Virus record (IMG/VR): IMGVR_UViG_3300033067_000735
Span: 1-37,979 of that record
Length of the DNA: 37,979 nt
Direction: 5' to 3' (one strand)
DNA from: a virus
Lineage: Duplodnaviria; Caudoviricetes
Of the stretch, positions 4,016-30,974 are shown one piece after another (the stretch's first letter is position 1; every line of letters starts with the position of its first letter). The position numbers and the translations under genes are program-made. The notes under the pieces were generated by a model, which was not told the DNA's origin, did no database searches, and worked only from the letters and a program-made list of their open reading frames with translations.

Positions 4016-4407
4016 CGGAACTGCGGAGGTGGTCTGAGTTTTCGGAGAGCGAGAGGGCCGAAGCCGTAGCCAAGGCGCGGCACATCATTGCCGAGGCGCG
4101 CGGCGGCATGTGGCACTGGCACACGGTCGCCAAGCAGTGCGGCTGCAAAAGCGGGGACGGTATCCGCCGCGCGCTCGACCCGACTTGGCGCGAGGCGTGC
4201 GCCGCGAAGAAGCGTGAGGCGAAGGGCGATCCGGGCGTCGTGGCTGCCCGGCACAATATGCACGCCGAGGCCCGATCCGGGAAGGTCGACCACGACACGT
4301 TCGCGGCCCGGCTGGCGGAAATCCCGCCCGACACGCGCAACCTGACCGGCGTCGTGTTCGGCGACCCTCTGCCCGGCCGTTCCGCGCTCGCCCGGAGGCA
4401 CGCATGA
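4012..4407 (+). CDS. Hypothetical phage protein
   Basis: Coupled ORF; C-terminal DTRNLTGVVFGDPLPGRSAL resembles a recurring motif in rhizobial prophage proteins. Confidence 0.7.
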   Translation: MTELRRWSEFSESERAEAVAKARHIIAEARGGMWHWHTVAKQCGCKSGDGIRRALDPTWREACAAKKREAKGDPGVVAARHNMHAEARSGKVDHDTFAARLAEIPPDTRNLTGVVFGDPLPGRSALARRHA

Positions 4408-4931
4408 CCGGCTGGACGGAAGAGCGCCTGACCCGCGCCGAAGCTCTCTGGCGCGGCGGGCACATGTCGGCGCGGGACATCGCTGCGGACATCGGCGGCG
4501 GACTGACCCGCAACGCCATCATCGGCAAGGCGCACCGCGGGAAGTGGGGCGAGCGGCCGCGTATCGGCCGGCAGGGGCAGGGCAGGCCGCCCAAGGCTGA
4601 CCGCCCGAAGTCGCACAAGCAGACCATCCGCAAGCCGCCGCGCCCGGTCGAGCGCAACTACAGCCTCGGCTTCGGCTCTCGGTTTCAGTCCGAAGTCCCG
4701 GTGCCGCCGACGCCCGTCATCGAGCCGCCCACGCCGCCCGTCGCGCGCATGGTGTCGCTCATGGACCTCAAGTTCGGCGATTGCCGCTTCCCGCTCGGCG
4801 ACCCGCGGCATGCCGACTTCGGCTACTGCGGCGCCAAGGCGGCTCCGGGCCGGTCGTACTGCGACTGGCACGCACAGCTGGCCTATCAGCCCGTCCAGAC
4901 CCGGCGGCAGCGGGAGGCGGCGCACGCATGA
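4404..4931 (+). CDS. gcrA: GcrA-family cell-cycle transcription regulator
   Basis: N-terminal WTEER...LW...SA..IA...TRNAIIGKAHR and C-terminal CRFPLGDP...FGYCG...YCDWH..LAYQ. Confidence 0.92.
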   Translation: MTGWTEERLTRAEALWRGGHMSARDIAADIGGGLTRNAIIGKAHRGKWGERPRIGRQGQGRPPKADRPKSHKQTIRKPPRPVERNYSLGFGSRFQSEVPVPPTPVIEPPTPPVARMVSLMDLKFGDCRFPLGDPRHADFGYCGAKAAPGRSYCDWHAQLAYQPVQTRRQREAAHA

Positions 4932-6330: not shown

Positions 6331-6524
6331 TGGCGGACCAGCTCACCGACCTGATCCGTCACGCCGAGGCCCTTGTCGCCTCGATCAACTACGACGACAG
6401 CGGCACGAACGGGCAGGGCGGCAACGGCGGGCTGATCTCGCGGGAGACGATCCGGAAGACGGATGCCCTCCGCATGGCGATCTACGAGGCCAAACGGCAG
6501 GAAAGGGACGCCGACCATGGTTGA
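6330..6524 (+). CDS. Hypothetical 64-aa protein
   Basis: TGATG coupling with the initiator gene. Confidence 0.7.
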   Translation: MADQLTDLIRHAEALVASINYDDSGTNGQGGNGGLISRETIRKTDALRMAIYEAKRQERDADHG

Positions 6525-7206
6525 GCCTGTGACGCTGCTCGACGGGCGGGTGACGCTGTATCTGGGCGATTGCCGCAGCATTTTGCCGACGCTGGGCAAG
6601 GTCGATGCCGTGGTGACAGACCCGCCTTATGGGATCAGGGCAAACGAAAATCCCGTCAGGTCAAAGTGGGGCAAAGACGTCATTCAGGGCGGCAACTGGG
6701 ACCGCGACAGGCCCCCCGCATCCGTGATGCATGCGATGCGGGAAGTGAGCGACCATCAAATTATCTGGGGCGGAAACTACTTCACGGATTATCTCCCGCC
6801 GTCGATGCAGTGGCTTATCTGGGATAAGGGCTCGCGGGAGTTTTCTCTGGCTGACTGCGAGATGGCGTGGTCATCAAAGCACGCAGCCGCCCGTATCATA
6901 AGCTATTCGAGGGCGAAAGCGCAGCAGGACGGCAAGGAACACCCGACGCAGAAGCCGATCGAGGTCATGGAGTGGGCGATCAGCCAACTGCCGCTGCCGT
7001 CCGACACGATCCTCGATCCGTTCATGGGGAGCGGCACAACTGGCGTTGCCGCTGTGAAGCTAGGCCGCCGCTTCATCGGCATTGAGATCGAAGAGCGTTA
7101 CTTCCAAATCGCATGCAGGCGCATCGAGGAGGCTTCCAAGCAGTTAGACTTTTTCGTCAGGCATGACGATCCCAAGCCCGAAACCGCGCTGCTGCCAGGT
7201 ATGTAG
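6517..7206 (+). CDS. Orphan beta-class N6-adenine/N4-cytosine DNA methyltransferase
   Basis: DPPY precedes HPTQKP and DPFMGSGTT; no cognate restriction gene seen. Confidence 0.92.
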   Translation: MVEPVTLLDGRVTLYLGDCRSILPTLGKVDAVVTDPPYGIRANENPVRSKWGKDVIQGGNWDRDRPPASVMHAMREVSDHQIIWGGNYFTDYLPPSMQWLIWDKGSREFSLADCEMAWSSKHAAARIISYSRAKAQQDGKEHPTQKPIEVMEWAISQLPLPSDTILDPFMGSGTTGVAAVKLGRRFIGIEIEERYFQIACRRIEEASKQLDFFVRHDDPKPETALLPGM

Positions 7207-8676: not shown

Positions 8677-9030
8677 ATGGCATCGAAGCGAGGCGGTTTC
8701 CGCCCTGGCGCTGGACGCAAACCCGGCTCAAAGCCGCCGCCTGCCGAAGCCAAGCGCTCCCTCTCCGAACTCGCCCGCGAACTGACCGACGAAGCAATCG
8801 AGACGCTGCGGTCTGTGATGCGATCGGGGCAGAGCGAGGCGGCGCGTGTTGCGGCTGCCAATGCGGTTCTCGACCGCGGCTACGGCAAGCCCCCACAGTT
8901 CTCGACCGGCGACGCCAAGGCCTTCAAGGCGGCCACGGAAATGACGGATGACGAACTCGCAAGCGTTATCGCCAGTGGAAGCGGCGGTCGAGCTGCTACG
9001 CCGACGAACAGCGCGGCGAAGCCTCACTGA
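8677..9030 (+). CDS. terS: Terminase small subunit
   Basis: RGGFRPGAGRKPGS and AANAVLDRGYGKP motifs; precedes terL. Confidence 0.8.
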   Translation: MASKRGGFRPGAGRKPGSKPPPAEAKRSLSELARELTDEAIETLRSVMRSGQSEAARVAAANAVLDRGYGKPPQFSTGDAKAFKAATEMTDDELASVIASGSGGRAATPTNSAAKPH

Positions 9031-10399
9031 ATACGCCCGCCTTTGCGGGTTCGAGCCTGCCGCCCATCACCGCCTGTTGATCGAGGCGCTTGAGGCCGTC
9101 GCGAGGGGCGACTACCCGAACCTCGCGGTCTTCATGCCGCCGGGCAGTGCCAAGAGCACCTACGGCAGCGTCCTGTTCGCCTCGTGGGTGATGCAGCAGC
9201 GCTGGAACGTGCTTGCAGCCTCGCACACGGTCGAACTGGCCGAGAAGTGGGGCAGGCGGGTTCGCAACCTCGTGGCCGAGCATCGGCTTGTCCTTGGCGT
9301 CACGCCCGATCCTGACAGCCAAGCGGCCGGGCGATGGGCTCTCAGCGACGGGACGGAATACTACGCGGCCGGAGTCAACACCGGCATCGCGGGCTTCCGC
9401 GCCAAGCTCGGCATCATCGACGACCCGGTGCGCTCGCGACAGGACGCGGACTCGGAGCTGATCCGTGACAGGACGTGGGACTGGTACATCAATGACTTTC
9501 GAACGCGCCTTGTCCCTGGGGCTCGTCAGGTTCTCATTCAAACCCGATGGCACGAGGATGACCTGGCCGGCCGAGCCCTCCAACATGGCGACTGGCATGT
9601 GCTCAGCCTTCCGGCCTTGGCTGAGGACAACGACCCGCTGGGACGCCGGCCCGGTGAGCCACTCTGGTCCGACGACGCCTATGGTTACGGTGGGCAGCTT
9701 CTCGACCTAGCGAAGGACACGCCTGCCCGCACATGGAGCGCGCTTTACCAGCAGCGCCCGGCGCCGGAAGAGGGCGACTACTTCAAGGCCGACTGGCTCA
9801 AGACGTACGACACGCTGCCCCCGCGCTCGGAGATGCAGGTCTATGGCGGGTCGGACTACGCCGTTACCGCTGACGGCGGCGACTACACCGTGCACGTCGT
9901 GGTCGGGCTCGACGCTGACAACCGAATGTATCTTTTGGACCTCTGGCGCCGGCAAGCGTCGTCTGATGTCTGGGTTGAGGCATTTGCTGATCTCGTCAAG
10001 CAATGGAAGCCCATCGGCTGGGCCGAGGAAAAAGGCCAGATCGCGTCGGGCGTCGGCCCGCTCCTAGACCGCCGCTCCCGCGAGCGTCAGGCATTCGTTC
10101 ACCGCGAGGCATTCCCGACCCGAGGCGACAAGGCGATCCGCGCTCAGTCGATCCGGGGCCGCATGGCGATGAACGGCCTGTACGTCCCGGCCAATGCGCC
10201 GTGGCTGGCAGAGCTTCGGTCGGAACTGCTGCACTTCCCGGCCGGCAAGCATGACGACCAGGTCGACGCCCTGGGCCTCGTCGGACAGTTGCTCGACAAG
10301 ATGGTGAGCGGCACGCGGCCGAAGGCTGGCGATAAGCCCGCGTTCACGGACTACAAGCCCCGCGCCCCGCGCGACCAGTCGAACATGATGGTTCTCTGA
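8948..10399 (+). CDS. terL: Terminase large subunit
   Basis: Walker A MPPGSAKST, Walker B GIIDDP, QTRWHEDDL, nuclease GSDYA...GDYT and HDDQVDA; exact start uncertain. Confidence 0.95.
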   Translation: MTNSQALSPVEAAVELLRRRTARRSLTEYARLCGFEPAAHHRLLIEALEAVARGDYPNLAVFMPPGSAKSTYGSVLFASWVMQQRWNVLAASHTVELAEKWGRRVRNLVAEHRLVLGVTPDPDSQAAGRWALSDGTEYYAAGVNTGIAGFRAKLGIIDDPVRSRQDADSELIRDRTWDWYINDFRTRLVPGARQVLIQTRWHEDDLAGRALQHGDWHVLSLPALAEDNDPLGRRPGEPLWSDDAYGYGGQLLDLAKDTPARTWSALYQQRPAPEEGDYFKADWLKTYDTLPPRSEMQVYGGSDYAVTADGGDYTVHVVVGLDADNRMYLLDLWRRQASSDVWVEAFADLVKQWKPIGWAEEKGQIASGVGPLLDRRSRERQAFVHREAFPTRGDKAIRAQSIRGRMAMNGLYVPANAPWLAELRSELLHFPAGKHDDQVDALGLVGQLLDKMVSGTRPKAGDKPAFTDYKPRAPRDQSNMMVL

Positions 10400-12387
10400 T
10401 GGCCGTTGGCGTCGCATCCTCCCCGTCAGGCTACGGCGACTCCGGCCGTGGCGTGTCGAGCGGAGGCGGACCCGCGTCCGAAGAGGACAAGGGCGCCAGC
10501 GTCACCGAGCTTCGCAAGCAGTACACCGATTTCCTCTCCTCCAAGCACGCCGAGATCGAGGAACAGCGCCTTCACCGTCACTACTACCACGGCGACCAGC
10601 TTACCAAGGACCAGCTTGCCGAACTCCAGAGGCGCGGCCAGCCGGCGACGATCCGCGACAAGGCGAGCCGCAAGATCAATGGCGTCGTCGGCCTCCTCGA
10701 GCGCCTGAAGCAAGACCCGAAGGCGTATCCGCGCACCCCGAAGCACGAGGAAGGGGCGGAGATTATCACCGCTGCTGTTCGGTATGTGCTGGACGCCAAC
10801 AACTGGTCCGCGCTCTCTGCCGGTGCTGCGCGCGATGGTGCGATCAACGGCATCTTCGGCGTCGAGATGGACCTTATCGAAGGGGACATGGGTGACCCGG
10901 ACATCAGCCTCAACCAGGTCGACAACGACACGTTTTTCTACGACCCGCGCTCGTTCCGCTACGACTTCTCGGATGCCCGCTACATGGGCGTTGCGAAGTG
11001 GGTAGACGCTGATGTTGCCAAGGAGATGTTCCCCGACCAGGAGGACGAGATCGACAGCCTCGTCACCTACGGCACCGGGGCTGAATCGTGGCAGCAGCGC
11101 GACCGCGAACTGAAGTGGACGGACAGCAGCGAGCGACGCATCTTCCTCATCGAGCACTGGTACATCCGCAAGGGCGAGTGGCACGCCTGCTGGTACTGCG
11201 GCGACAAGAAGCTGAAGTCCATCAAGTCGCCGTTCTACGAGAAGCTGCCAACATCTGAACAGCCGGGCAAGACCGCCTGCCGCTACATCATGGGCTCGGT
11301 CAACGTCGACCATGATGGCGACCGCTACGGCTACCTCCGGCTGCTCAAGACGCTGATTGACGAGCTGAACGCGCTCGTCAGCAAGCGGGCGCACCTGATC
11401 AACACCCGTCGCATCATCATGGAAGAGGGTTCCGTGATGGACGTGGACACGGCCCGCAAGGAGGCCGTTCGCGCCGATGGCGTCCTCGTTGTGGCGCCGG
11501 GCCGTCGCTTCGAGTTCGACGACGCCCGCACGATGGCCGACATTCGCTCGATCAACGAGGCGATTGCCGAGGTCAAGACGGAGATCGAGAATTTCGGCCC
11601 GAACCCGGCCTTGATCGGGCAGGGCATCGAGAACAAGTCGGGCCGGGCGATTGCGCTCCTCCAGCAAGCCGGCATTGCCGAACTTGGGCCGGGCATCATC
11701 GGCAACCGCGATTGGAAGCTCCGAACCTTCCGCTCGGTGTCGACCAACCAGCGCAAGCACTGGGGGGCCGAGCGCTGGCTCAGGGTCACGGATGACGAGG
11801 GCGCGCCCAAATTCATGGGCATGAACGTGATGCAGGTTGACGAGATGGGGCAGCCCGTCCTCGTGAGCATCATGCCCGATGGGCGGGTCATCCCCGGCGG
11901 CATCGACGCCCTCGACGTGGATATCATCCTCGACGAGGGGCCGGACACGCTCAACGTCATGCAGGACACCTTCGAGACGCTTCAGGCGCTCGCCCAGAAC
12001 GGGGCACAGGTTCCGCCCGACGTGCTGATCATGGCGAGCAACCTCCCGGCGAGCGAGAAGAAGAAGATTCTCGAGCGCATGGAGCAGGCCAACAAGCCTT
12101 CCGAGTTCGACCAGAAGGTCATGGAGATCAAGACGGTCGAAGCCGAGGGCAAGGCCCGCAAGGTCAACGCCGAGGCGGACAAGATCACGGCCGAAGTGCC
12201 CGGCGTCGATGCCACGGCCATGCAGGCGCGGGCCTCGGCGTTCAAGGACGTTGCCGGCGCTGCCATGGACATTGCAGGGGCCAAGCAGGCCGGTGGCGGC
12301 CCCATGAGCGAGCTAGCCGCTATCCGGCAGCGCAACGGCCTTGAGCCCAGCCCGCCCGACCTCGGCGGCTCTACCCCGTTCGGTTGA
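10399..12387 (+). CDS. Portal protein, P22-like with C-terminal helical barrel region
   Basis: 662 aa after terL; YYHGDQ, FYDPRS..YDFSDARY, SGRAI..LQQAG and DVDIILDEGP motifs. Confidence 0.9.
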   Translation: MAVGVASSPSGYGDSGRGVSSGGGPASEEDKGASVTELRKQYTDFLSSKHAEIEEQRLHRHYYHGDQLTKDQLAELQRRGQPATIRDKASRKINGVVGLLERLKQDPKAYPRTPKHEEGAEIITAAVRYVLDANNWSALSAGAARDGAINGIFGVEMDLIEGDMGDPDISLNQVDNDTFFYDPRSFRYDFSDARYMGVAKWVDADVAKEMFPDQEDEIDSLVTYGTGAESWQQRDRELKWTDSSERRIFLIEHWYIRKGEWHACWYCGDKKLKSIKSPFYEKLPTSEQPGKTACRYIMGSVNVDHDGDRYGYLRLLKTLIDELNALVSKRAHLINTRRIIMEEGSVMDVDTARKEAVRADGVLVVAPGRRFEFDDARTMADIRSINEAIAEVKTEIENFGPNPALIGQGIENKSGRAIALLQQAGIAELGPGIIGNRDWKLRTFRSVSTNQRKHWGAERWLRVTDDEGAPKFMGMNVMQVDEMGQPVLVSIMPDGRVIPGGIDALDVDIILDEGPDTLNVMQDTFETLQALAQNGAQVPPDVLIMASNLPASEKKKILERMEQANKPSEFDQKVMEIKTVEAEGKARKVNAEADKITAEVPGVDATAMQARASAFKDVAGAAMDIAGAKQAGGGPMSELAAIRQRNGLEPSPPDLGGSTPFG

Positions 12388-12399
12388 TAGGAGACAGAC

Positions 12400-12909
12400 A
12401 TGGCGACTTTGGCCGAACTCGGGAGCCGTAAGCTCTCGCGGGGCGGGGACATGACGACGGCTTGGGTATCCACGGCATCGTGGACGCCTGCGGCTGCGGC
12501 CTACGCCGCCAATGATGTGATCTCAACAGCCCAAGAGTTCACCGGCATCGGGTTCCCGAACGGCGGAGAGGTCATGATCAACTCCGCTTCGCTCCTGGTG
12601 GCACATACGGCAGTCATATCGGGGGAGACGAACTATCTCCTCTACCTCTACAACGTCACCCCGCCCAGCGCCCTTGCCGACAACGATGCGTTTGACATCC
12701 CCTCGGGTGATCGAGCCGCTTTGGTTGCCCGCATCGACCTCGGCACCCCTGCAGACCTAGGCTCGACGCTCCTGGTGCAGACAGACGAAATCAACAAGCA
12801 AGTGACGGTCCCAAGTGGCGGGAGTCTCTTCGGCTACCTCGTCACCGTGGGGGCGTTCACGGCCACGGCGGCGGCTCGTCAGGTCACTCTTCACACACGT
12901 TCTCTTTAA
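12400..12909 (+). CDS. Probable virion protein (beta-rich, 169 aa)
   Basis: AGGAG RBS; Thr/Ala/Val-rich; in structural operon. Confidence 0.65.
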   Translation: MATLAELGSRKLSRGGDMTTAWVSTASWTPAAAAYAANDVISTAQEFTGIGFPNGGEVMINSASLLVAHTAVISGETNYLLYLYNVTPPSALADNDAFDIPSGDRAALVARIDLGTPADLGSTLLVQTDEINKQVTVPSGGSLFGYLVTVGAFTATAAARQVTLHTRSL

Positions 12910-12924
12910 GGAAGGGCACCCGCA

Positions 12925-13242
12925 ATGGCTCAGACCAATGGCGTGTCGTTTGTTGAGATCGGCCCTTACATCCGGGGCAGGGCTGCGGCTGATAGCTTGG
13001 TCAAGACCGGCGCCGGCTATTTGCACACGGTCACGATTTCGCCCCTGACGGCGACCCCCACAGCGGGATTGCTGACCGTATACGATGGCACCACCGAAGC
13101 CGGCTTCGTCCTCTATTCGGAGTGGGTTTTCGCGACGACGCCCGGGCACACGGTAATCCTCGACACGCCGTTCGGCTCGGGCATCTACGTCGGCTTCGAC
13201 GCGACGCTAGCCAACGTCAACGTGATGCTGTCTTACCGGTAA
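12925..13242 (+). CDS. Probable virion protein (105 aa)
   Basis: RBS; LVKTGAGYLHTVTI...LTVYDG beta-sandwich-like pattern. Confidence 0.65.
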   Translation: MAQTNGVSFVEIGPYIRGRAAADSLVKTGAGYLHTVTISPLTATPTAGLLTVYDGTTEAGFVLYSEWVFATTPGHTVILDTPFGSGIYVGFDATLANVNVMLSYR

Positions 13243-14501
13243 TGCCTACGCTCGCCGAAATCGAATCCCGCCAGCGGCTATCAGCACAAGGGGAATCCCG
13301 CGTGCTGTCGCTGGGCCAAGAGAGCGGCAAGCCGCTTTCCGGGGGGCGCGGCGGCGAGACGTGGGTGACGGCAACGGGCGGGACAACGGGCTACACCCTT
13401 GCGGACTGGATGGCGTCCATATCGGCCCTCCCGACTGCGGGGACCGGCGACGCCCAGCAGTTGTTTAATTCGAGCTCTGGGCAAGTGCTAGATTTCCGCC
13501 TGGGCACGAGCGCAACGCCTGATACATCACTAAATGCCGGGCTCAAAGTCACCCGCACCATGGGCCACGCTGACGACGGCGGGGCGAGTGATGATGGCGA
13601 GCAACTTACTGCCATCCTCGGCGCTGCGGTTGGTGTCACGGCGATGGTCGGCCAGCCGGTCGGCGTTGTGGGGATTGCCAAGCACAGCGGGACAACGAGC
13701 GGCACAGGTCGTCGCCCTGACGCTGTTGGCATCTACGGTATAGGGGACATCACTGGTTCGGGGACTGGCGTTGGCATCGGTGCATTCTTCCAAGGTCGGC
13801 GCGAGGAGAGCACAGGGAAGCTAACCGGAGTTGAGATTCAGACAGCCAACTACGGGGGGGCTGCGCTGACTTACAGTTCAACGGGGTTTTCCAGCGGTGG
13901 CATATGGCTCAACGCCAACGGCGATGCCGATAGCGCTGCCGGGATAATGATCGCAAACCCGTTCGGGTTTCAGTTCGAGGTAGGGATTGCATTTGTTGGC
14001 CAAGTAGCCGGCGGGAAGACCGGCGGCATCTCCGCCGCCGCGATCCGTGACGACAGTACCGCGACCAAGAGCTACGACATCCGGGGCACCCATAATATCG
14101 CAATCGACGCGACCGGCGCGACCTTGAGCGGGGGTGTTCTCTACGCGCCAAACAACGTCGTCATCCTTCGCGCCAAGAACGCGGCGGGGGATAGCGACGA
14201 CGCGCTGCTGTCTTACAATTCGTCCGACGTGTTGGTGATCGGCTCGACCGACACCAACAACATCTTCATGTCCCAGACCGTGCAGATGCAGGAGGCGAAA
14301 GACCTCCAACTAGGCACGACCACAGGGACGAAGATCGGAACGGGCACCACGCAAAAGCTGTCGTTCTGGAACGCTACGCCGGTCGTGCAGCCGGCTGCGG
14401 TTGCCGATGCATCCGGTGGGGCGACCATCGATGCCGAGGCGCGGACGGCCCTTAATGCTCTCCTTGCTCGCATGCGGACGGTTGGGATGATCGCGACGTG
14501 A
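13242..14501 (+). CDS. Fibre/spike protein (419 aa)
   Basis: Gly-rich beta-repeats; C-terminal KLSFWNATPVVQP...NALLARMRTVGMIA resembles fibre trimerisation ends. Confidence 0.7.
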   Translation: MPTLAEIESRQRLSAQGESRVLSLGQESGKPLSGGRGGETWVTATGGTTGYTLADWMASISALPTAGTGDAQQLFNSSSGQVLDFRLGTSATPDTSLNAGLKVTRTMGHADDGGASDDGEQLTAILGAAVGVTAMVGQPVGVVGIAKHSGTTSGTGRRPDAVGIYGIGDITGSGTGVGIGAFFQGRREESTGKLTGVEIQTANYGGAALTYSSTGFSSGGIWLNANGDADSAAGIMIANPFGFQFEVGIAFVGQVAGGKTGGISAAAIRDDSTATKSYDIRGTHNIAIDATGATLSGGVLYAPNNVVILRAKNAAGDSDDALLSYNSSDVLVIGSTDTNNIFMSQTVQMQEAKDLQLGTTTGTKIGTGTTQKLSFWNATPVVQPAAVADASGGATIDAEARTALNALLARMRTVGMIAT

Positions 14502-14656
14502 CGCTCGACAAGGAAGAACACCGCACAATCCTGCTCGAACTCATCAACAAGAGCGCATTCCCCGGCCAGTTCGCCGAGACGGTGGCCGAGTTGAAGGCGG
14601 CTCTATCTGCCGCCGACGTGCAACCCCCAGACACCCCAAACCCTTCGGCGGGTTGA
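14498..14656 (+). CDS. 52-aa protein, possible fibre assembly chaperone (not in ORF track)
   Basis: GTGA overlap; MTLDKEEHRTILLELINKSAFPGQFAETVAELKAAL. Confidence 0.6.
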   Translation: MTLDKEEHRTILLELINKSAFPGQFAETVAELKAALSAADVQPPDTPNPSAG

Positions 14657-14683
14657 CGCCGACAACGCTGAAAGGAAACTGCC

Positions 14684-15196
14684 ATGCCCTATAACCTCGC
14701 CGAACAGGAGAGCCAGGCTCTCCGAAACGGCCCCAACTACGACATGCTCGTCCCGTTCAAGCGCGCCCAGGCCATGCGGCGCGTCGAGGAGAAGATCTTC
14801 GACCCGATCGGCACCGCCCTGACCACGGCACTCTCGCCCGTCACGGCGTTCGTCGTCTCCGGGCTCGTGATCGCCAAGGTCGTCGGCATCTCCAACGCGG
14901 CGCTCGCCTCGACCAGCACCACCGGCACGCTCGCCGTCGGTGTCTCCGGCGCCACCACGGTTGCCCTCGGCACTACCACCATCAACGGCACCAACTTCCC
15001 GGCCGCGAATACGGTCTGGATCGACACGTCGCCGACGGTGCTGGCCGAGGTCATGGTCGCTGCGAACCTCACCGGGTTTCTGACGGCCTCCAACATCATC
15101 GTCACGGTCGCCACCAACAACATGACGACCGGCGGCCTGTACCTCTACTGCATCTGGGAGCCCGTTTCCCCGAACGCCTCGGTCACCGCCGCGTGA
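14684..15196 (+). CDS. Probable virion/decoration protein (170 aa)
   Basis: AAAGGAAA RBS; strongly biased codons; beta-rich. Confidence 0.7.
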   Translation: MPYNLAEQESQALRNGPNYDMLVPFKRAQAMRRVEEKIFDPIGTALTTALSPVTAFVVSGLVIAKVVGISNAALASTSTTGTLAVGVSGATTVALGTTTINGTNFPAANTVWIDTSPTVLAEVMVAANLTGFLTASNIIVTVATNNMTTGGLYLYCIWEPVSPNASVTAA

Positions 15197-15378
15197 TGAC
15201 CCGAATGGACTACCTCTCCGCCAGCCGATCTTGGCGGGAGCAAGCGGCGAAGGCCGGCAATCCTATCACTTGGTGGATGGCTGAGGCGGCCGATACGCCG
15301 GAACCCCTGTACGACCCCATCGAACCCCGTGGCGTGGCCGGCATCGTGCCGTCTCCCGCTCGCGGCCAGTCAGACTAG
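15193..15378 (+). CDS. Hypothetical 61-aa protein
   Basis: GTGA overlap with previous gene. Confidence 0.55.
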   Translation: MMTRMDYLSASRSWREQAAKAGNPITWWMAEAADTPEPLYDPIEPRGVAGIVPSPARGQSD

Positions 15379-15384
15379 CCTACC

Positions 15385-15490
15385 CCGTAGGGCTCACGAC
15401 ACGAGCCGAACTGCCTCGTACGCGCCGACGACACAGGCGCTCCGCCACGCGCAGCGAAATGCGCGTCTCGTCCCACAAACGAAACTTGTG
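15385..15490 (+). promoter_or_regulatory. Four tandem hairpin/pseudoknot units in the scaffold 5' UTR
   Basis: Stems GGCTC/GAGCC, GCGCC/GGCGC, ACGCGCA/TGCGCGT and CACAA/TTGTG; each loop has RCGA(C/A)A; each stem is preceded by YCGY. Confidence 0.8.
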
Positions 15491-15503
15491 AAGGAACGTT
15501 CTC

Positions 15504-16412
15504 ATGCAGGACGCGGACCTCGATTCCGTCAACGATGGCCTCTCCGAAGCTCTCGCCTCCATCCCCTCCGAGCCGGCTTCCGAGCCGACCAGCGATGCAC
15601 GGGCGGCAACCGAGAGCGAGGCGAGCCAGTCGCGCGACGAGCGCGGGCGCTTCAAGTCCGAAGCCGAAAAGGCCGAGGCAGCGCCGAAGACGGCGGACCC
15701 CGACGAAGGCGAAGGCGGGCGCGTCCCGGCCTGGCGCCTGAGGGAAATCCGTGAGGAGAGGGATGCCGAACGCCGCGAGCGAGAGACCGAACGCCGCGAA
15801 CTGGAGGCCCTGAAGCGCGAACGCGCCGCATGGCTCCAGCAGCAGCAGAGGCAGCAGCCCCCGCAGCGTCCCGACCTCTACAACGACCCGGACGCCTACG
15901 CCGATTACGTCGAGCAGACGGTCGGCGGGCGCGTCAAGACGGTCGAGGAGATGGTCCGCGACCGCTTCGTCAACATGACTTTCGACAGTCAGGCCGAAGC
16001 GCTGGGCAAGGACGTGTTCGACCCCATGGTCAACGCGTTCATCCAGACGGCCGGGGTGGGTGGGTCCGTTGACCCGCAGCTCTTCCGGAGTGTCGTCGAG
16101 GCATCCAATCCCGGCGCCGCACTGGTCCGGTGGCACAAGCGCCATCAGGCACAGACGGAGGTCGGGGGGGACATCGACGGCTACAACGCCCGGCTTCGCG
16201 ACAAGCTCAAGAAAGACCCTGAGTTCCGCAAGGAGTTCATGGCCGAGCTTGAGGCCGAAGCCCGTGGCGGCTCCCCTGCACGTTCCTCAGACAACATCAC
16301 CAGTCTCCCGTCCTTGAACCGCGCCCCCGGTGGGGCAGGCCGCCAGCAACTCGGCGACCTCGGCAGTTCGGACCAGGAGATGTTCTCGAATCTTACCCGC
16401 AAGCGACGCTGA
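15504..16412 (+). CDS. Capsid scaffolding protein
   Basis: Acidic N-terminus, RDERGRF, VPAWRLREIREER coiled coil; directly before the capsid gene. Confidence 0.8.
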   Translation: MQDADLDSVNDGLSEALASIPSEPASEPTSDARAATESEASQSRDERGRFKSEAEKAEAAPKTADPDEGEGGRVPAWRLREIREERDAERRERETERRELEALKRERAAWLQQQQRQQPPQRPDLYNDPDAYADYVEQTVGGRVKTVEEMVRDRFVNMTFDSQAEALGKDVFDPMVNAFIQTAGVGGSVDPQLFRSVVEASNPGAALVRWHKRHQAQTEVGGDIDGYNARLRDKLKKDPEFRKEFMAELEAEARGGSPARSSDNITSLPSLNRAPGGAGRQQLGDLGSSDQEMFSNLTRKRR

Positions 16413-16450: not shown

Positions 16451-17611
16451 ATGGCACTCTCCGAAACCCAGAGCAACAACAAGCTCGTCAAGTACCGCGA
16501 CGACTTCATCGTCGAATGGTGGCGCGAAAATCGGTTCAGCCCGTACCAGGGCGCCGACATGACCTCCATCATCCGCGTCTTCAATGACCTGAAGGCCGGT
16601 GGCGAGGAACTGAACATCCCGATGCTGTCGAAGGCACGCGGGACCGGCGTCGGCTCCGGCACGCTGACCGGCAACGAGGAATCCCTCGACGACTACGGGA
16701 TGCGCGTCCGCGTCGATTGGGCTCGCCACGCCATCGCGATGAAGAAGAGCGAGAAGCGGAAGCAGTCCGCCGACGCCTTCGGCGAAGCCAAGCCGCTCCT
16801 CAACGGCTGGGCGGACGAACTGCGCCGCGACGAGACGATCGTTGCGATGCTCTCGCTCCCCTCGGAATCGGCACAGGCGAACCTCGGCAGCGATGCCGGC
16901 GACCGCGTGGCCGGTATCCGCTACGAGGCGGCCACCGCCACCCAGCGCAACACCTGGAACGCCGACAATAGCGACCGCGTCCTCTACGGCAACGCGACCG
17001 CCAACTACAGCGCCACGCACGCGACCGCGCTGGCGAACGTCGATGCGACCAACGACCTCTTCGGCCTCGGTTCGTCCAAGCTGATGAAGCGTCTCGCCAT
17101 GAACGCCGACCCCGCGATCAAGCCTTTCAAGGTCGAGGGGACCAACAAGGAGTTCTTCGTCGCCTTCCACGGCAGCAACACCTTCGCCGATTTCCAGGCT
17201 GCGCTCGACGCGGCTGGCATCGACAAGGATGCGCGCGCCCGTGAGAAGGGCGGCATGGACGAGAACCCGCTGTTCCAGGGCGGCGACGAGTTGTACCGCG
17301 GCGTCATCCACGTCGAGGTGCCGGAGATCGACCAGTACGTGACCAACACGGCCACGTCGCTCCTGACGGCCGGCGCGGGCTCCATCCGCGTCAACCCGGT
17401 GTTCCTCTGCGGGCAGTCGTCCCTCGTGTTCGGCGTGGGCCAGATGCCCAAGCCGACGTTCCGCGAGTCGACCGACTACCAGTTCGTCGAGGGCGCCGGA
17501 ATTGAAATGTGCTACGTTCTGGCCAAGGCGTTCAAGAAGTACCCCAAGACTGCGACCACGCTGAAGCAGATCGGCATGGTCACCGGCTTCTTCGCCGCGA
17601 CCGGAACGTAG
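16451..17611 (+). CDS. Major capsid protein (DUF4043/N4-gp56-like)
   Basis: 386 aa; LTGNEESL, RHAI, NPLFQG...YRGVIHVE and FLCGQS motifs; highly biased codons. Confidence 0.9.
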   Translation: MALSETQSNNKLVKYRDDFIVEWWRENRFSPYQGADMTSIIRVFNDLKAGGEELNIPMLSKARGTGVGSGTLTGNEESLDDYGMRVRVDWARHAIAMKKSEKRKQSADAFGEAKPLLNGWADELRRDETIVAMLSLPSESAQANLGSDAGDRVAGIRYEAATATQRNTWNADNSDRVLYGNATANYSATHATALANVDATNDLFGLGSSKLMKRLAMNADPAIKPFKVEGTNKEFFVAFHGSNTFADFQAALDAAGIDKDARAREKGGMDENPLFQGGDELYRGVIHVEVPEIDQYVTNTATSLLTAGAGSIRVNPVFLCGQSSLVFGVGQMPKPTFRESTDYQFVEGAGIEMCYVLAKAFKKYPKTATTLKQIGMVTGFFAATGT

Positions 17612-17636
17612 TCCCCAACATCCCCTGAATGACTGA

Positions 17637-17668
17637 CCCGTCCGGCTGGTGGCCGGGCGGGATTCTCT
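17637..17668 (+). terminator. Hairpin after the capsid gene (weak terminator or mRNA stabiliser)
   Basis: CCCGTCCGGC-tggtg-GCCGGGCGGG then ATTCTCT; a second hairpin CTTCGCC/GGCGAAG follows. Confidence 0.55.
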
Positions 17669-17710
17669 GCCCCTTCGCCAATTCCGGCGAAGAAACAATT
17701 GGAGACTCCA

Positions 17711-23662: not shown

Positions 23663-25051
23663 GTGGCCGACCGGAATTACGCGGCTGAGTTGATGATGGC
23701 AGCACCCGCCGCATCGCCCGTCCCGACGTATGCCGAACGCCTGACATTCGCGTCCATGTACCCCCCTGAACTGGTGAACGCCGAAAACCCGCTCCCGTCC
23801 TACGAGGAATCGTACTGGGACCGGATGACGCGGGCGTTGCCCGATGCGCCCCCGGTGGCGATTGCGAGCGGCATCATCGGCGGCATAGGCGACCTCGCGA
23901 TGCAGGCGAACGAGGCCATGCCGTGGGGCGGGGATAACCCGGCGGCCATCGGCATGTATCCCGGAAGCATGTCCCCGGAAGGCCGGGACGTGCATTCGTT
24001 CGGCGGCATGAACATCGACCCGAGTGTTCTGGTGCCGTTTGCACAGAACGTCGCGGGGATGGCGACGACAGGCAGCCTTGCGGCCCCTGCGGTGAGGAAC
24101 GCAACGGGCATGGGCATCAGGGCCTATCACGGCAGCCCGCACGACTTCGACCGCTTCAGCATGGACAAGATCGGGACGGGGGAGGGGGCTCAGGCTTACG
24201 GGCATGGGCTGTACTTCGCTGAGAATGAGGGGGTGGCGCGAGGGTATCGCGACGCGCTGAAAATGAAGGGTTACGACAACAATCCGATGTACGCAGAAGC
24301 GGTCAATAATCACGGGTTTGGGGCCAAAGAGTTCGACCAGTTTGAGAGCATCGCGAGGCAAACTGTCCATGAGCCGGATGCTTTAGCCAATGCATTCTTT
24401 GACCGAAATGCCGAGTGGAGCCCGCTCAGGGATGACCCTGTAGAGTACCAGAACGTTCGGGATTTTGCCCAGAAGTATATCGACAGCACGCCGCAAGGCC
24501 GCATGTACGAAGTCGACATCAATGCCTCCCCTGACGAGTTCCTTGACTACAGCGCACCACTCGACCGCCAGAGCCCGAAGGTGCGGCAGGCGCTTGAAGG
24601 ACTAGGCGTCAAGATTGGCAAGCGCGACTCCCGCAGTGGCGGCGACATGCTCGGCGAGTTCGGTGACAACCCGGCTGCCGCGTCTCAGGCCCTACGGGAC
24701 GCCGGGATCAAAGGCATCCGATATGAGGATGCAGGGTCGCGGTTCGACCCTGCCGAGGCTCGCAGGGAACTCACGACGCTTGAGGAGGAGTTGGGCTTCG
24801 TCACCCGTAGCCCGGCCCCGGACCCCGTGGCTATCCGCAACCTTGAGCGGCAGATCGGGGACTTGAAGAGCAAACTCGACCGCCCGCAAACGTCCAACCT
24901 GGTAGTGTTTGACGAGGACACGATCAGCATCCTCAAGAAGTACGGCATAGCGGGCCTGACGGCGGGCGGGGCAGGCGCGGCCATGCTCGGCGGCACATCC
25001 GACCCCGCATCCGCTGCCGCCCCTTCCTACTCCACCGGCGGACGTTTCTAG
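23663..25051 (+). CDS. Putative ejected protein with polyvalent-protein ADP-ribosyltransferase-like domain
   Basis: AYHGSPHDFDRF...GTGEGAQAYGHGLYFAE, MYEVDI, GIKGIRY and NLVVFD motifs. Confidence 0.65.
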   Translation: MADRNYAAELMMAAPAASPVPTYAERLTFASMYPPELVNAENPLPSYEESYWDRMTRALPDAPPVAIASGIIGGIGDLAMQANEAMPWGGDNPAAIGMYPGSMSPEGRDVHSFGGMNIDPSVLVPFAQNVAGMATTGSLAAPAVRNATGMGIRAYHGSPHDFDRFSMDKIGTGEGAQAYGHGLYFAENEGVARGYRDALKMKGYDNNPMYAEAVNNHGFGAKEFDQFESIARQTVHEPDALANAFFDRNAEWSPLRDDPVEYQNVRDFAQKYIDSTPQGRMYEVDINASPDEFLDYSAPLDRQSPKVRQALEGLGVKIGKRDSRSGGDMLGEFGDNPAAASQALRDAGIKGIRYEDAGSRFDPAEARRELTTLEEELGFVTRSPAPDPVAIRNLERQIGDLKSKLDRPQTSNLVVFDEDTISILKKYGIAGLTAGGAGAAMLGGTSDPASAAAPSYSTGGRF

Positions 25052-26284: not shown

Positions 26285-28336
26285 ATGGCGTGGTCGAGCG
26301 AAGATCAGAACCCCACCATGGGGCCTTCCGCCGCCTATGGCGGGGGCAACTACGCGGCGCAACTGAATGCCGTGTCCTACAATCCCCTGTCGGGCGGATC
26401 GTCCAGCACTGGCATGGCGACGACTACCACGGCCGCGAGCAGCGCGCCGACCTATGCTGACCGACTGAACGCGACGAACCCGGCCCAGCCCAAAACGACA
26501 AGCCAGGCGCTTTCGGCGTCCGCCAAGAAGGGGCCGGCACGCACCGAGGCCCCGACGCGCCCGCCTGACCCGGTGGCCTCGGCGCGTCAGTACCTTGCGA
26601 GCGTCGGCGTGAACAGCGCCTCGATGAATCGCCAGGGCTTCAATCAGGCGATCGGGCGGATGCGCCCCGACTTCGTGGTCGGCCTTGCCAATGCCGTTCG
26701 GCAGGCTCGCAGCGAGGGCATCGGCGTCGGCCCCAACTCCACCTTCCGCGATCCGGTGCTCGACCCCGGCGGCTACAAGGACAAGTGGAACAGCATGCAC
26801 GGCTACGGGATGGGTAGCGACGTGCAGGGCATCGGCGGCAGGGGGTCAGAGGACGCGGTGCGCTTCTCTCAGATCGCAGAGGAGAACGGCATCACGAACC
26901 CCTACGGCCCCTACAACAAGGCCGAATACAACCACTATCAGCTCGTCGATCAGAAGGGGCGTCAGTTCCGCGAGGCCAACCCCGCAGCCACGCCAGCCCT
27001 TCGCGCCTATCGCGAGGCCGGCTCGCCTGTATTCAACCCGCCCGACCCGCGCATGTCGCCCCGCACGTCGCCGGCCTTCGGCGCTCAGGGCGCCCGTGGC
27101 CCGATGCCGAACGACTACCCGGACCCGACCGGGCGCGGCTATGAGCCCGCCCCGGAACTTGCGGCGCTGTGGGCCGCGACGGGCTATCAGGGTGGCGCGG
27201 GCGACTTCAACACCCCGCCCGAGCCCATGGTCGCCTCGGCAGGGAACGACGCCATGGCCGGCGGCAACATGCCTCCCAATCCCCGAATGCGTCCCGACCG
27301 CACGCAGATGGCCTACGCGCCGGCCCCAGAGGCACAGGCGCCGTTCGACGCCGTGCTTGACCCGTCGGCCGATCGTCGCCCGCAGCCGCCCACGCCCCGC
27401 ACCAGGCCGCAACGCGACACGTTGCAGGCCCCGGCCCCGACTGGCGGGGAGTACGTCGTGCGGCGCGGTGACAACCTGACCAAGATCGCCCGTCAGGCAG
27501 GCGTCTCGGTCCAGGAACTCGCCCGCGCCAATGGCATCCGCAACCCAGACCAGATCGACGTGGGCCAGCGGCTCGTCATGCCCGGTGGGCAGGCTCAGGC
27601 CCCTGCCGCCCCGCCCCGCCGCGAGGTCGCCATGCCGTCGCCTCGACCCCGGCCCGAACGCGGGGCGAACGTACCCAACCCCCGGATGCGTCCTCAGCAA
27701 TCGCAGGCCCCGCAGTGGTCGGCGGCAGATCAGGCAACCGAGGTCGACGCGAACGGCAACTACGTCAACCAGCCGGCGCCACAGTCCCAGCCCCGCCGTC
27801 AGGGCGGCATGAACACCGAGGCCGACGTGCAGGCGTCGGTGGCCGACTATCGGCAGCGCAACATCGCTAATGGCCTTCCCGAAGGTCCGGACCTTGAGGC
27901 GGCGGTGCAGCGCTATGAGCAGGACTTGCGCCAGCGAGCGGGTATCGCCCGTCCCGACAGCGGGGCAGCGGACATCGGCCGCGCCGTGTCCAACTTTCGC
28001 TCCCGCGCGCTCCAATCCGGCGTCCAACCCGGCCCGGTCCTCGACGAAGCCACCCGGCGGTTTGAGGAAGCGTACCGCTCCAATGCAGCCGGCGGTCAGC
28101 CCCAGGCGGCCCTTGAGCCCGGCATGGACAACACCGGCCTCATCCGCCCCGTGACGGCGCAAGAACGCGCGTTGCAGCAGAACGCTCGCCTTCCGCTGCC
28201 GACCGGCCAGCAGCCCATGGACCCGCGCAATGCGGCTCAAATGGACATGGCCGACGGCGTGTTCCGTCCCATCGCCGTGCCCGGCGGCCCTCCGTGGGTC
28301 GCCAGCAACGGCATTCGCTTCTATGCGGCGAGGTAG
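26285..28336 (+). CDS. Virion-associated peptidoglycan hydrolase: M15-type Zn peptidase plus LysM, with long disordered linkers
   Basis: STFR...SMHGYGMGSD...EYNH metal-ligand pattern; LysM YVVRRGDNLTKIARQAGVSVQELARANGIRNPDQIDVGQRLVMP. Confidence 0.8.
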   Translation: MAWSSEDQNPTMGPSAAYGGGNYAAQLNAVSYNPLSGGSSSTGMATTTTAASSAPTYADRLNATNPAQPKTTSQALSASAKKGPARTEAPTRPPDPVASARQYLASVGVNSASMNRQGFNQAIGRMRPDFVVGLANAVRQARSEGIGVGPNSTFRDPVLDPGGYKDKWNSMHGYGMGSDVQGIGGRGSEDAVRFSQIAEENGITNPYGPYNKAEYNHYQLVDQKGRQFREANPAATPALRAYREAGSPVFNPPDPRMSPRTSPAFGAQGARGPMPNDYPDPTGRGYEPAPELAALWAATGYQGGAGDFNTPPEPMVASAGNDAMAGGNMPPNPRMRPDRTQMAYAPAPEAQAPFDAVLDPSADRRPQPPTPRTRPQRDTLQAPAPTGGEYVVRRGDNLTKIARQAGVSVQELARANGIRNPDQIDVGQRLVMPGGQAQAPAAPPRREVAMPSPRPRPERGANVPNPRMRPQQSQAPQWSAADQATEVDANGNYVNQPAPQSQPRRQGGMNTEADVQASVADYRQRNIANGLPEGPDLEAAVQRYEQDLRQRAGIARPDSGAADIGRAVSNFRSRALQSGVQPGPVLDEATRRFEEAYRSNAAGGQPQAALEPGMDNTGLIRPVTAQERALQQNARLPLPTGQQPMDPRNAAQMDMADGVFRPIAVPGGPPWVASNGIRFYAAR

Positions 28337-30338: not shown

Positions 30339-30974
30339 ATGACGCTTTTCACGGACAAGGCTCCGTGGGTGATGAATCTGCTGCGCGCGGATTTCAATCT
30401 CACGGTGGAAGAGGCCGCCGCCATCCTCGGCAACATCGGCCATGAATGCGCGGGGTTCGCCAAGTTCCAGGAACAGAAGCCGACCGTGAAGGGCTCGCGC
30501 GGCGGCTTCGGCTGGTGCCAGTGGACTGCGGGACGCCGCGTCGCCTTCGAGGCGTACTGCAAGCGCAACAAGCTCGACCCCATGTCGGACGAGGCCAACT
30601 ACGGCTTCCTCTTCACCGAACTGAAGGGGACGGAGAAGGCGGCCATCCCGGCGATCAAGAAGGCGACCGGCCTTGAGGGCAAGGTGGCGGCCTTCGAGCG
30701 CAGTTTCGAGCGAGCTGGCGTCATCAACATGCCGAGCCGGATGCGCTACGCCAATCAGGCGCTGGCAGCGTGGAAGATCAAGCAGGACGCCCGGCCGCCG
30801 TATCCGGTTGCGCCCGTGCCCGCCACGAAGCCTGTCACGCCGCCGCCATTGCCCGGCGCTCAACCCGGGTCAGCGCCGGCCGACCCCGGTCCAACTCGTG
30901 CAGAAAATGCACAGGTTGCCGCCCCCGGCTGGCTCGCCCGGTTCTTCCTCTGGCTCTCGGGCCGCTCCGCCTGA
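30339..30974 (+). CDS. Endolysin with phage-tail-lysozyme-like domain and Pro-rich/amphipathic tail
   Basis: AAAILGNIGHEC, GGFGWCQWT..RR and FERSFERAG motifs; heads the lysis cluster. Confidence 0.8.
   Translation: MTLFTDKAPWVMNLLRADFNLTVEEAAAILGNIGHECAGFAKFQEQKPTVKGSRGGFGWCQWTAGRRVAFEAYCKRNKLDPMSDEANYGFLFTELKGTEKAAIPAIKKATGLEGKVAAFERSFERAGVINMPSRMRYANQALAAWKIKQDARPPYPVAPVPATKPVTPPPLPGAQPGSAPADPGPTRAENAQVAAPGWLARFFLWLSGRSA

Follow-up and report, generated by a model that had tools for sequence, protein, structure and literature searches.

Matching scaffolding protein to coat protein is a classic problem in phages. In P22, the scaffolding protein is autogenously regulated and represses its own synthesis, as has been reported since the 1980s (PMC5529062), and this autoregulation acts via the N-terminus of the protein (bioRxiv 2022.12.13.520362); the sections of these two sources consulted here name no RNA site for it. 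An H-type pseudoknot in the gene 32 leader of phages T4 and T2 has been proposed as the entry site of autogenous translational repression (PMC3014915). Phage genes immediately preceded by structured RNAs have also been described; such RNAs include GP20-a and GP20-b (RF02991, RF03003) and six further candidates (PMC10690425). Compact H-type folds are likewise found in leaders that work through host machinery and tolerate changes of sequence, as for the tisB 5′ pseudoknot and other S1 binders (PMC7708055) and for obstacles to RNase E (PMC9943677). Here we describe a row of small predicted pseudoknots in front of the likely scaffold gene of a podophage, and its counterparts in related phages.

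Results

The window, that is, the whole stretch of DNA analysed, is a virus record of 37,979 bases whose + strand carries the late operon of a podophage. The operon encodes the terminase large subunit (8948..10399, phrog_38), a P22-like portal protein (10399..12387; PF16510, E 1.7e-87), a 61-codon ORF (15193..15378), a likely scaffolding protein of 302 aa (15504..16412), and a major capsid protein of the Pam1 type (16451..17611; PF13252, phrog_334, PDB 7eel), all on the + strand, together with head-closure and ejection genes. The interval between portal and scaffold (12400-15378, +) holds ~3 kb of genes without family matches (169, 105, 459, 170, and 61 aa), of which the 459 aa product is rich in Gly, Ala, and Thr and fibre-like in appearance. 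The products of 23663-25051, 26285-28336, and 30339-30974 (+), in which ART-PolyVal, LysM, and phage-lysozyme domains occur, are likely ejection and lysis proteins, and a DNA methylase is encoded at 6463-7206. A homologue of the cell-cycle regulator GcrA (4404-4931, +; E 6.7e-32) is a candidate transcription activator; this gene, together with close prophages in Rhizobiales genomes, suggests that the host of the phage is an alphaproteobacterium.

The product of ORF 15504-16412, which had no match in Pfam or PHROG, is likely the scaffolding protein. Its gene precedes the capsid gene, and a profile of 40 relatives searched against eight sequences matched the annotated scaffolds of Pam5 (E 1e-24) and Pam1 (E 1.5e-6). 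The same profile barely reached the P22 scaffold with an E value of 0.023 among these eight sequences, and the two proteins are at most remotely related. In the structural model of the 302 aa protein (pTM 0.40), an acidic disordered N-terminus is followed by a long arginine-rich helix (residues 76-117), a helical bundle, and a C-terminal helix; the model gave no significant fold match and no match to a solved structure. Assignment to the P22-type scaffold family PF09306 was not supported, the profile giving no match and the fold search being not significant; PF09306 occurs in 14% of a neighbouring Atlas cluster, which is a weak lead only. Two possible markers of an RNA-binding partner, the RDxxGRF motif and arginine density, were also considered and discarded because they did not separate the groups. 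The motif is absent from 40 of 128 scaffolds, and arginine density did not distinguish modules with arrays from those without.

Between the stop of the 61-codon ORF at 15378 and the Shine-Dalgarno-like AAGGAA (15491..15496, +; 7 nt 5′ of the ATG at 15504), four predicted pseudoknots of one form (form A) occupy 106 bases on the + strand (15385-15490). Unit 1 (15385..15407), which begins 6 nt after that stop, reads CCGT (15385-88), AG, GGCTC (15391-95), ACGACAC (15396-402), and GAGCC (15403-07), with CGU/ACG as stem 1, AG as loop 1, GGCUC/GAGCC as stem 2, and ACAC as loop 3. Unit 2 (15416..15440) consists of TCGT (15416-19), AC, GCGCC (15422-26), G, ACGACACA (15428-35), and GGCGC (15436-40), giving stem 1 (U)CGU/ACG(A), loop 1 AC, and stem 2 GCGCC/GGCGC. 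In unit 3 (15442..15466), composed of CCGC (15442-45), C, ACGCGCA (15447-53), GCGAAA (15454-59), and TGCGCGT (15460-66), stem 1 is compensated to CGC/GCG, loop 1 is C, stem 2 is ACGCGCA/UGCGCGU, and loop 3 is AAA. The terminal unit 4 (15468..15490; TCGT at 15468-71, CC, CACAA at 15474-78, ACGAAAC at 15479-85, TTGTG at 15486-90) has stem 1 (U)CGU/ACG(A), loop 1 CC, and stem 2 CACAA/UUGUG, and its end at 15490 directly adjoins the Shine-Dalgarno sequence of the scaffold gene. Loop 1 is thus 1-2 nt long in all four units. A preliminary description of this DNA had written out the four units, AAGGAA, and the ATG, and all of them were confirmed letter by letter.

A strict descriptor found exactly these four sites on both strands of the 38 kb window, whereas 60 dinucleotide shuffles averaged 0.27; this comparison is partly circular because the descriptor was derived from the finding itself. 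A signature-free pseudoknot finder returned the same four units (shuffle mean 0.3). The folding energy of the whole region was ordinary (z = -0.75, with a tool that does not model pseudoknots); the case for the units rests on covariation in relatives. Elsewhere in the operon, the 50 nt leader of ORF 14684 (14640-14689, +) contains a hairpin UCGGCG/CGCCGA followed by AAAGGAA; this leader is kept in two relatives (L122, L123) and in contigs with differing flanks, and it is possibly a separate cis element.

We gathered 201 loci of relatives via their capsid and scaffold proteins, of which 177 gave a leader (128 unique). A detector that searches for the hairpin first and is blind to the linker found 217 complete form A units in the 128 unique leaders; the corresponding counts were 7.85 for shuffles, 22 for the reverse strand, and 12 for coding controls. 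When 40 hairpins with several linkers and 18 without a linker were set aside, the third linker base was complementary to the first loop base in 179 of the remaining 190 hairpins, all with a single linker (U-A 97, C-G 72, G-C 9, A-U 1). Among 53 clusters with less than 50% scaffold identity, 117 of 121 linkers were complementary, whereas 10,000 permutations gave a mean of 55 and a maximum of 75. The covariation in the scaffold leaders of homologues that had been proposed as a check was therefore found. At least one form A unit was present in 51 of the 53 clusters, and the arrays had three units in 29 clusters, two in 10, four in seven, five in two, and one in three. The array family is thus widespread in relatives, with two to five predicted pseudoknots per row.

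Stem 2 had 124 distinct sequences among 141 form A units. For 33 units that share one geometry and were selected solely by the two outer pairs of stem 2, 93.9% of stem 2 was paired, and each of the five pairs showed two-sided changes; the three inner, unselected pairs were formed in 31, 32, and 26 units, in line with the earlier observation that the four stems of the window differ in sequence and yet pair. The consensus of form A is N-C-G-X, 1-2 nt, stem 2 (4-7 bp), 0-1 nt, X′-C-G, A-N-A-(C), and stem 2′. Loop 2 is 0-2 nt long and loop 3 mostly 3-5 nt and A-rich, loop lengths that would fit coaxial stacking on the sense strand. Stem 1 consists of two invariant C-G/G-C pairs, which are uninformative by themselves, and one covarying pair. 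Linker-loop pairing, as previously proposed, thus holds in its covarying pair, but the outer T-A pair is not conserved, the base before CG in the linker being T, A, or C, and stem 1 is effectively 3 bp long. The predicted units have two interleaved stems, each with covariation support, as expected of an H-type pseudoknot. Within stem 2 of form A, G-U stands to A-C as 29 to 24, a ratio uninformative on the strand. Three scaffold leaders (L055, L056, L070) carry a variant unit with the loop RCGU(C/U)A, in which the third linker-loop pair is sometimes A-G or A-A.

A second form of unit (form B) is carried by Rhizobium prophages and by Pam1, Pan3, and Pam5. It consists of a free 3 bp stem 1, G-Y, C-G-C-C, 1 nt, stem 1′, 4-9 nt, and G-G-C-G. 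In 269 distinct form B units, selected for at least two of three Watson-Crick pairs, all four pair types were in use in stem 1, and G-U occurred 22 times and A-C never, which points to the coding strand acting as RNA, that is, to an element that works on the mRNA strand. Stem 2 of form B is invariant and therefore without covariation support. Form B shares the geometry of form A, and both forms mix within arrays; the array of Pam1 alternates B-A-B-A, and 26 distinct hybrids bear both signatures together. The two interchangeable signatures and the hybrids suggest that shape matters more than base identity in these units. A single CG-ended core helix may underlie both forms; it would be knotted downstream in form A and upstream in form B.

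Among 197 head modules, an array of at least two units was found only before the scaffold gene in 150, only before the capsid gene in 13, and before both in three; 13 had other combinations with single units, and none was detected in 18, some of which are due to mis-called starts. There is usually one array per head module, and the capsid gene is always downstream. This sample is biased toward relatives of the window, a bias that is lessened by blind pattern scans. In a blind scan for form B, 56 of 80 matches on long viral loci preceded scaffold or capsid genes identified by profile. Of the other 24, 11 lay inside long ORFs and 13 were intergenic, in head modules or at contig ends, and none of these 13 precedes an identified non-head gene. 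Form B also stands before head genes of Mu-gpT-type capsid modules (L513, L280, L548). Both stems were present in 13 of 119 metagenome loci, including seven with head-gene matches, three before acidic scaffold-like ORFs, one at a contig end, and two that are chance-like.

The cultured carriers are Pam1, Pam5, Pan3, CBW1004C-Prop1, KPP25 (in the capsid leader), and Vibrio phage 1.205.O (one unit). A blastn search with two leaders against 50,697 phage records gave meaningful matches only to Pam1 and Pan3. The leaders of Bcep22, SopranoGao, Parlo, Claudette, PBC5, and AP1 contained 0-2 generic pseudoknots, which is the level of shuffles. Bcep22, SopranoGao, Parlo, and Claudette, which are without an array, have a phage CsrA-like gene directly 5′ of the capsid gene (L596 1692-1981 for Bcep22; L599, L603, and L604), and the capsid leaders of Bcep22 and Claudette contain a hairpin with an AGGA loop resembling what we take to be a CsrA site. 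Bcep22-like phages may control capsid translation in another way.

Relative to the Shine-Dalgarno sequence, the last unit stops at -4 to +8 nt in 43 of 51 clusters, and in 12 of 51 the two overlap; by contrast, the gap to the upstream stop can be anything between -6 and 271 nt. These 43 clusters thus show conserved structure at or close to a ribosome-binding site, as in an operator of the T4 gene 32 kind, and the relatives strongly support the earlier claim of a structure conserved by covariation that adjoins the scaffold ribosome-binding site. In Rhizobium prophages, GGAG or GAGG is itself the 3′ strand of stem 2. Genome compaction could account in part for the close fit between arrays and Shine-Dalgarno sequences. 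Of 150 scaffold leaders, 122 had their last unit no more than 22 nt from the start, compared with one of 15 capsid leaders; the nominal P value makes this difference look stronger than it is, because the capsid leaders come from few lineages. Arrays in the capsid leaders were 36-76 nt from the start in 14 of 15. The preliminary description, which had anticipated the tandem pseudoknots of form A, did not foresee form B, the hybrids, or these more distant arrays in capsid leaders. Some arrays follow a promoter-like site or a hairpin with a U-tract (KPP25, L255, L521, L593; read by eye).

The spacer between scaffold and capsid genes has its own Shine-Dalgarno sequence. A hairpin resembling an intrinsic terminator was seen in 43 of 118 such spacers, ~25-30 nt after the scaffold stop and directly before the capsid gene (e.g., L002 2918-3001); the window's own spacer is without one. 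In the window, two GC-rich hairpin-like stretches (17628-17652 and 17672-17691, +; read by eye) lie 3′ of the capsid stop, where they may shield the scaffold-capsid mRNA at its 3′ end.

P22 has no intergenic scaffold leader. The end of its portal gene, however, contains CGGC-A-GUGU-A-GCCG-AG-ACAC (L201 353-373). This stretch spans -41 to -21 of gene 8, and no other pseudoknot with the form A signature was seen in 3.1 kb of the head region. Sf6, NM-3, and APSE-1 each have one similar pseudoknot just 5′ of the scaffold Shine-Dalgarno sequence. Sf6, whose scaffold is ~27-32% identical to that of P22, retains CGGCA...UGCCG-AG in a different reading frame, with the knot on the upstream side (AGUC/GACU); the knot is AGUU/GACU in NM-3 and also in APSE-1, where the core appears by eye to be compensated (CUGCG/CGCAG for CGGCA/UGCCG). 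Kc237 has a clean form A unit at -50 to -26, whereas in IME10, a close relative of P22, one pair of stem 2 is mismatched without compensation, and Sf101 and ct3Oc712 gave ambiguous readings. Single pseudoknots occur 0.2-0.8 times per shuffled leader of 125 nt, so each of these matches is weak alone, and 80 nearly identical P22 loci showed no covariation. That the pseudoknots of the P22 group are counterparts of the array units is a lead and not a result.

Discussion

The array, known from its sequences, their covariation, the sense-strand bias, and the placement, is best explained as a candidate multivalent operator through which free scaffold would lower its own translation, a reading that we hold at about even chances. 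We chose it because the array adjoins the Shine-Dalgarno sequence, its stems are marginal, and P22 has a look-alike, all considered together with the autoregulation of P22 scaffold and the gene 32 operator of T4. A lone unit, with a stem 1 of 3 bp, a stem 2 of 4-7 bp, a loop 1 of 1-2 nt, and an A-rich loop 3, would be only marginally stable. Scaffold outside procapsids may bind the row cooperatively, perhaps via its arginine-rich helix, and would lock the last unit, thereby lowering entry of the 30S subunit at the Shine-Dalgarno sequence that this unit touches or overlaps. Coat protein would lift this repression by pulling scaffold into shells. Before a capsid gene, where arrays lie 36-76 nt clear of the start, bound scaffold would not block initiation but might shield the capsid mRNA from 5′-end-dependent decay; with either placement, the scaffold-to-coat ratio would tend to return to balance. 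This capsid-side half is an added assumption, made for the capsid-only arrays of 13 of 197 modules and for form B in Mu-gpT-type modules, whose scaffolds may not be homologous. A wider proposal, which we consider doubtful, is that modular CG-core pseudoknots are a general scaffold-sensing RNA of phages with a P22-type portal, including repression where they touch the scaffold ribosome-binding site, protection of capsid mRNA where they stand farther off, and, in P22, scaffold autoregulation through the single unit at -41 to -21 of gene 8.

A constitutive booster that faces the host, without any phage ligand, would be either a long coaxial obstacle of head-to-tail pseudoknots to 5′-end-dependent scanning by RNase E or a standby site for S1 and the 30S subunit, and would raise output from the scaffold-capsid mRNA; it is the main rival, though we think it unlikely. 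Plain stem-loops do not impede RNase E scanning, whereas H-type pseudoknots do so in proportion to their size (PMC9943677), and S1 binds varied H-type pseudoknots, one of which is needed for standby translation of tisB (PMC7708055). A booster would explain why pseudoknots are used and not hairpins, the spacers of 0-5 nt, the interchangeable forms, the wide host range, and the usual single array per head module with the capsid gene downstream, and it agrees with the arrays that follow a promoter-like site or a hairpin with a U-tract. Form B, the hybrids, and the capsid-leader arrays keep a role in protecting mRNA or loading ribosomes alive. However, a 3 bp stem 1 would probably be a poor persistent obstacle, the overlap with the Shine-Dalgarno sequence and the GGAG or GAGG within stem 2 of Rhizobium prophages would be counter-productive, and the element was not found before other genes, though podophages have few other high-copy late genes. 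If the booster were true, the arrays would be naturally occurring tandem pseudoknots, each unit ~25 nt long, that shield mRNA or load ribosomes and could serve expression engineering.

It is improbable that the ligand is unassembled coat or another head protein repressing the whole scaffold-coat module. The capsid gene is downstream in both placements, and the CsrA gene before the capsid gene of the array-less Bcep22-like relatives suggests that capsid synthesis is controlled at translation in these phages, but the capsid-leader arrays are poorly placed for repression, and the spacers' own Shine-Dalgarno sequence and terminator-like hairpins make tight translational coupling of scaffold and capsid doubtful. 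Nucleation of co-translational procapsid assembly, with scaffold, coat, and portal gathered on the mRNA, appears very improbable. The element is multivalent and head-specific, and a route via portal and mRNA was once suggested for P22 (PMC5529062); such nucleation predicts neither the Shine-Dalgarno overlap nor the different distances in scaffold and capsid leaders, and we found no support for the assembly role that the preliminary description had offered beside an operator. A cis-acting antiterminator RNA that lets RNA polymerase read through terminators of the head operon, in the manner of HK022 put, is likewise very improbable. The terminator-like hairpins in 43 of 118 spacers and the arrays directly 3′ of promoter-like sequences would suit it, whereas the abutment to the ribosome-binding site is left unexplained, the window's own spacer has no terminator, and Rfam gave no match. 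Linker and loop also form short inverted repeats (TCGT-N7-9-ACGA), as an operator in double-stranded DNA might; this explanation is largely refuted by a spacing that varies from 5 to 11 nt, the independent covariation of stem 2, and the excess of G-U over A-C (22 to 0) on the coding strand.

Under the operator reading, P22 and Sf6 now offer a precise and mutable candidate site, and ready-made compensatory variants exist in a large natural family to which Pam1, Pam5, Pan3, KPP25, and Vibrio phage 1.205.O belong. Under either the operator or the booster reading, the motif flags start sites of scaffold and capsid genes where scaffolds have no database match.

The comparison with Rfam that had been recommended gave 0 matches at the gathering score for the window and 20 related loci, and only chance-level matches in E-value mode; no family of Rfam 15, GP20-a/b, Mu-gpT-DE, and guanidine-II included, reached its gathering score. 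A description of such an array was not found in the literature searched, in which coverage of subscription journals is incomplete. Six short motif strings had no match in the searched part of the PMC10690425 supplement; since that study mined IMG/VR, one of its unnamed candidates may overlap the array element.

Among the described systems, P22 gene 8 shares the gene slot, the head module with a P22-type portal, and a single pseudoknot of similar size 5′ of the ribosome-binding site, but it has no array, and its single unit lies inside the end of the portal coding sequence. Three small H-type pseudoknots stand back to back in the upstream pseudoknot domain of tobamoviruses, in a viral untranslated region; that domain belongs to the 3′ end of a plant RNA virus and is of unrelated origin. 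GP20, which we take to be Pfam PF06810, belongs to a family now named Phage_scaffold in Pfam, and the array had no Rfam match to the GP20-a/b models. For the six further candidates, the hosts named are Firmicutes, and the part of PMC10690425 consulted describes no pseudoknot array. The tisB and RNase E cases are single elements or engineered reporters (PMC7708055, PMC9943677), whereas the arrays here are tandem and tied to phage head genes. The gene 32 pseudoknot is set back 67 nt from the start (PMC3014915), a placement comparable to that of the capsid-leader arrays here, but it is single and belongs to a gene for an ssDNA-binding protein, whereas two to five smaller predicted units in two interchangeable forms precede head genes here. 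Structured RNAs before phage scaffold genes (GP20-a/b) and a pseudoknot operator (gene 32) are thus already known kinds, and what appears to be new is a modular array of interchangeable predicted mini-pseudoknots tied to head genes.
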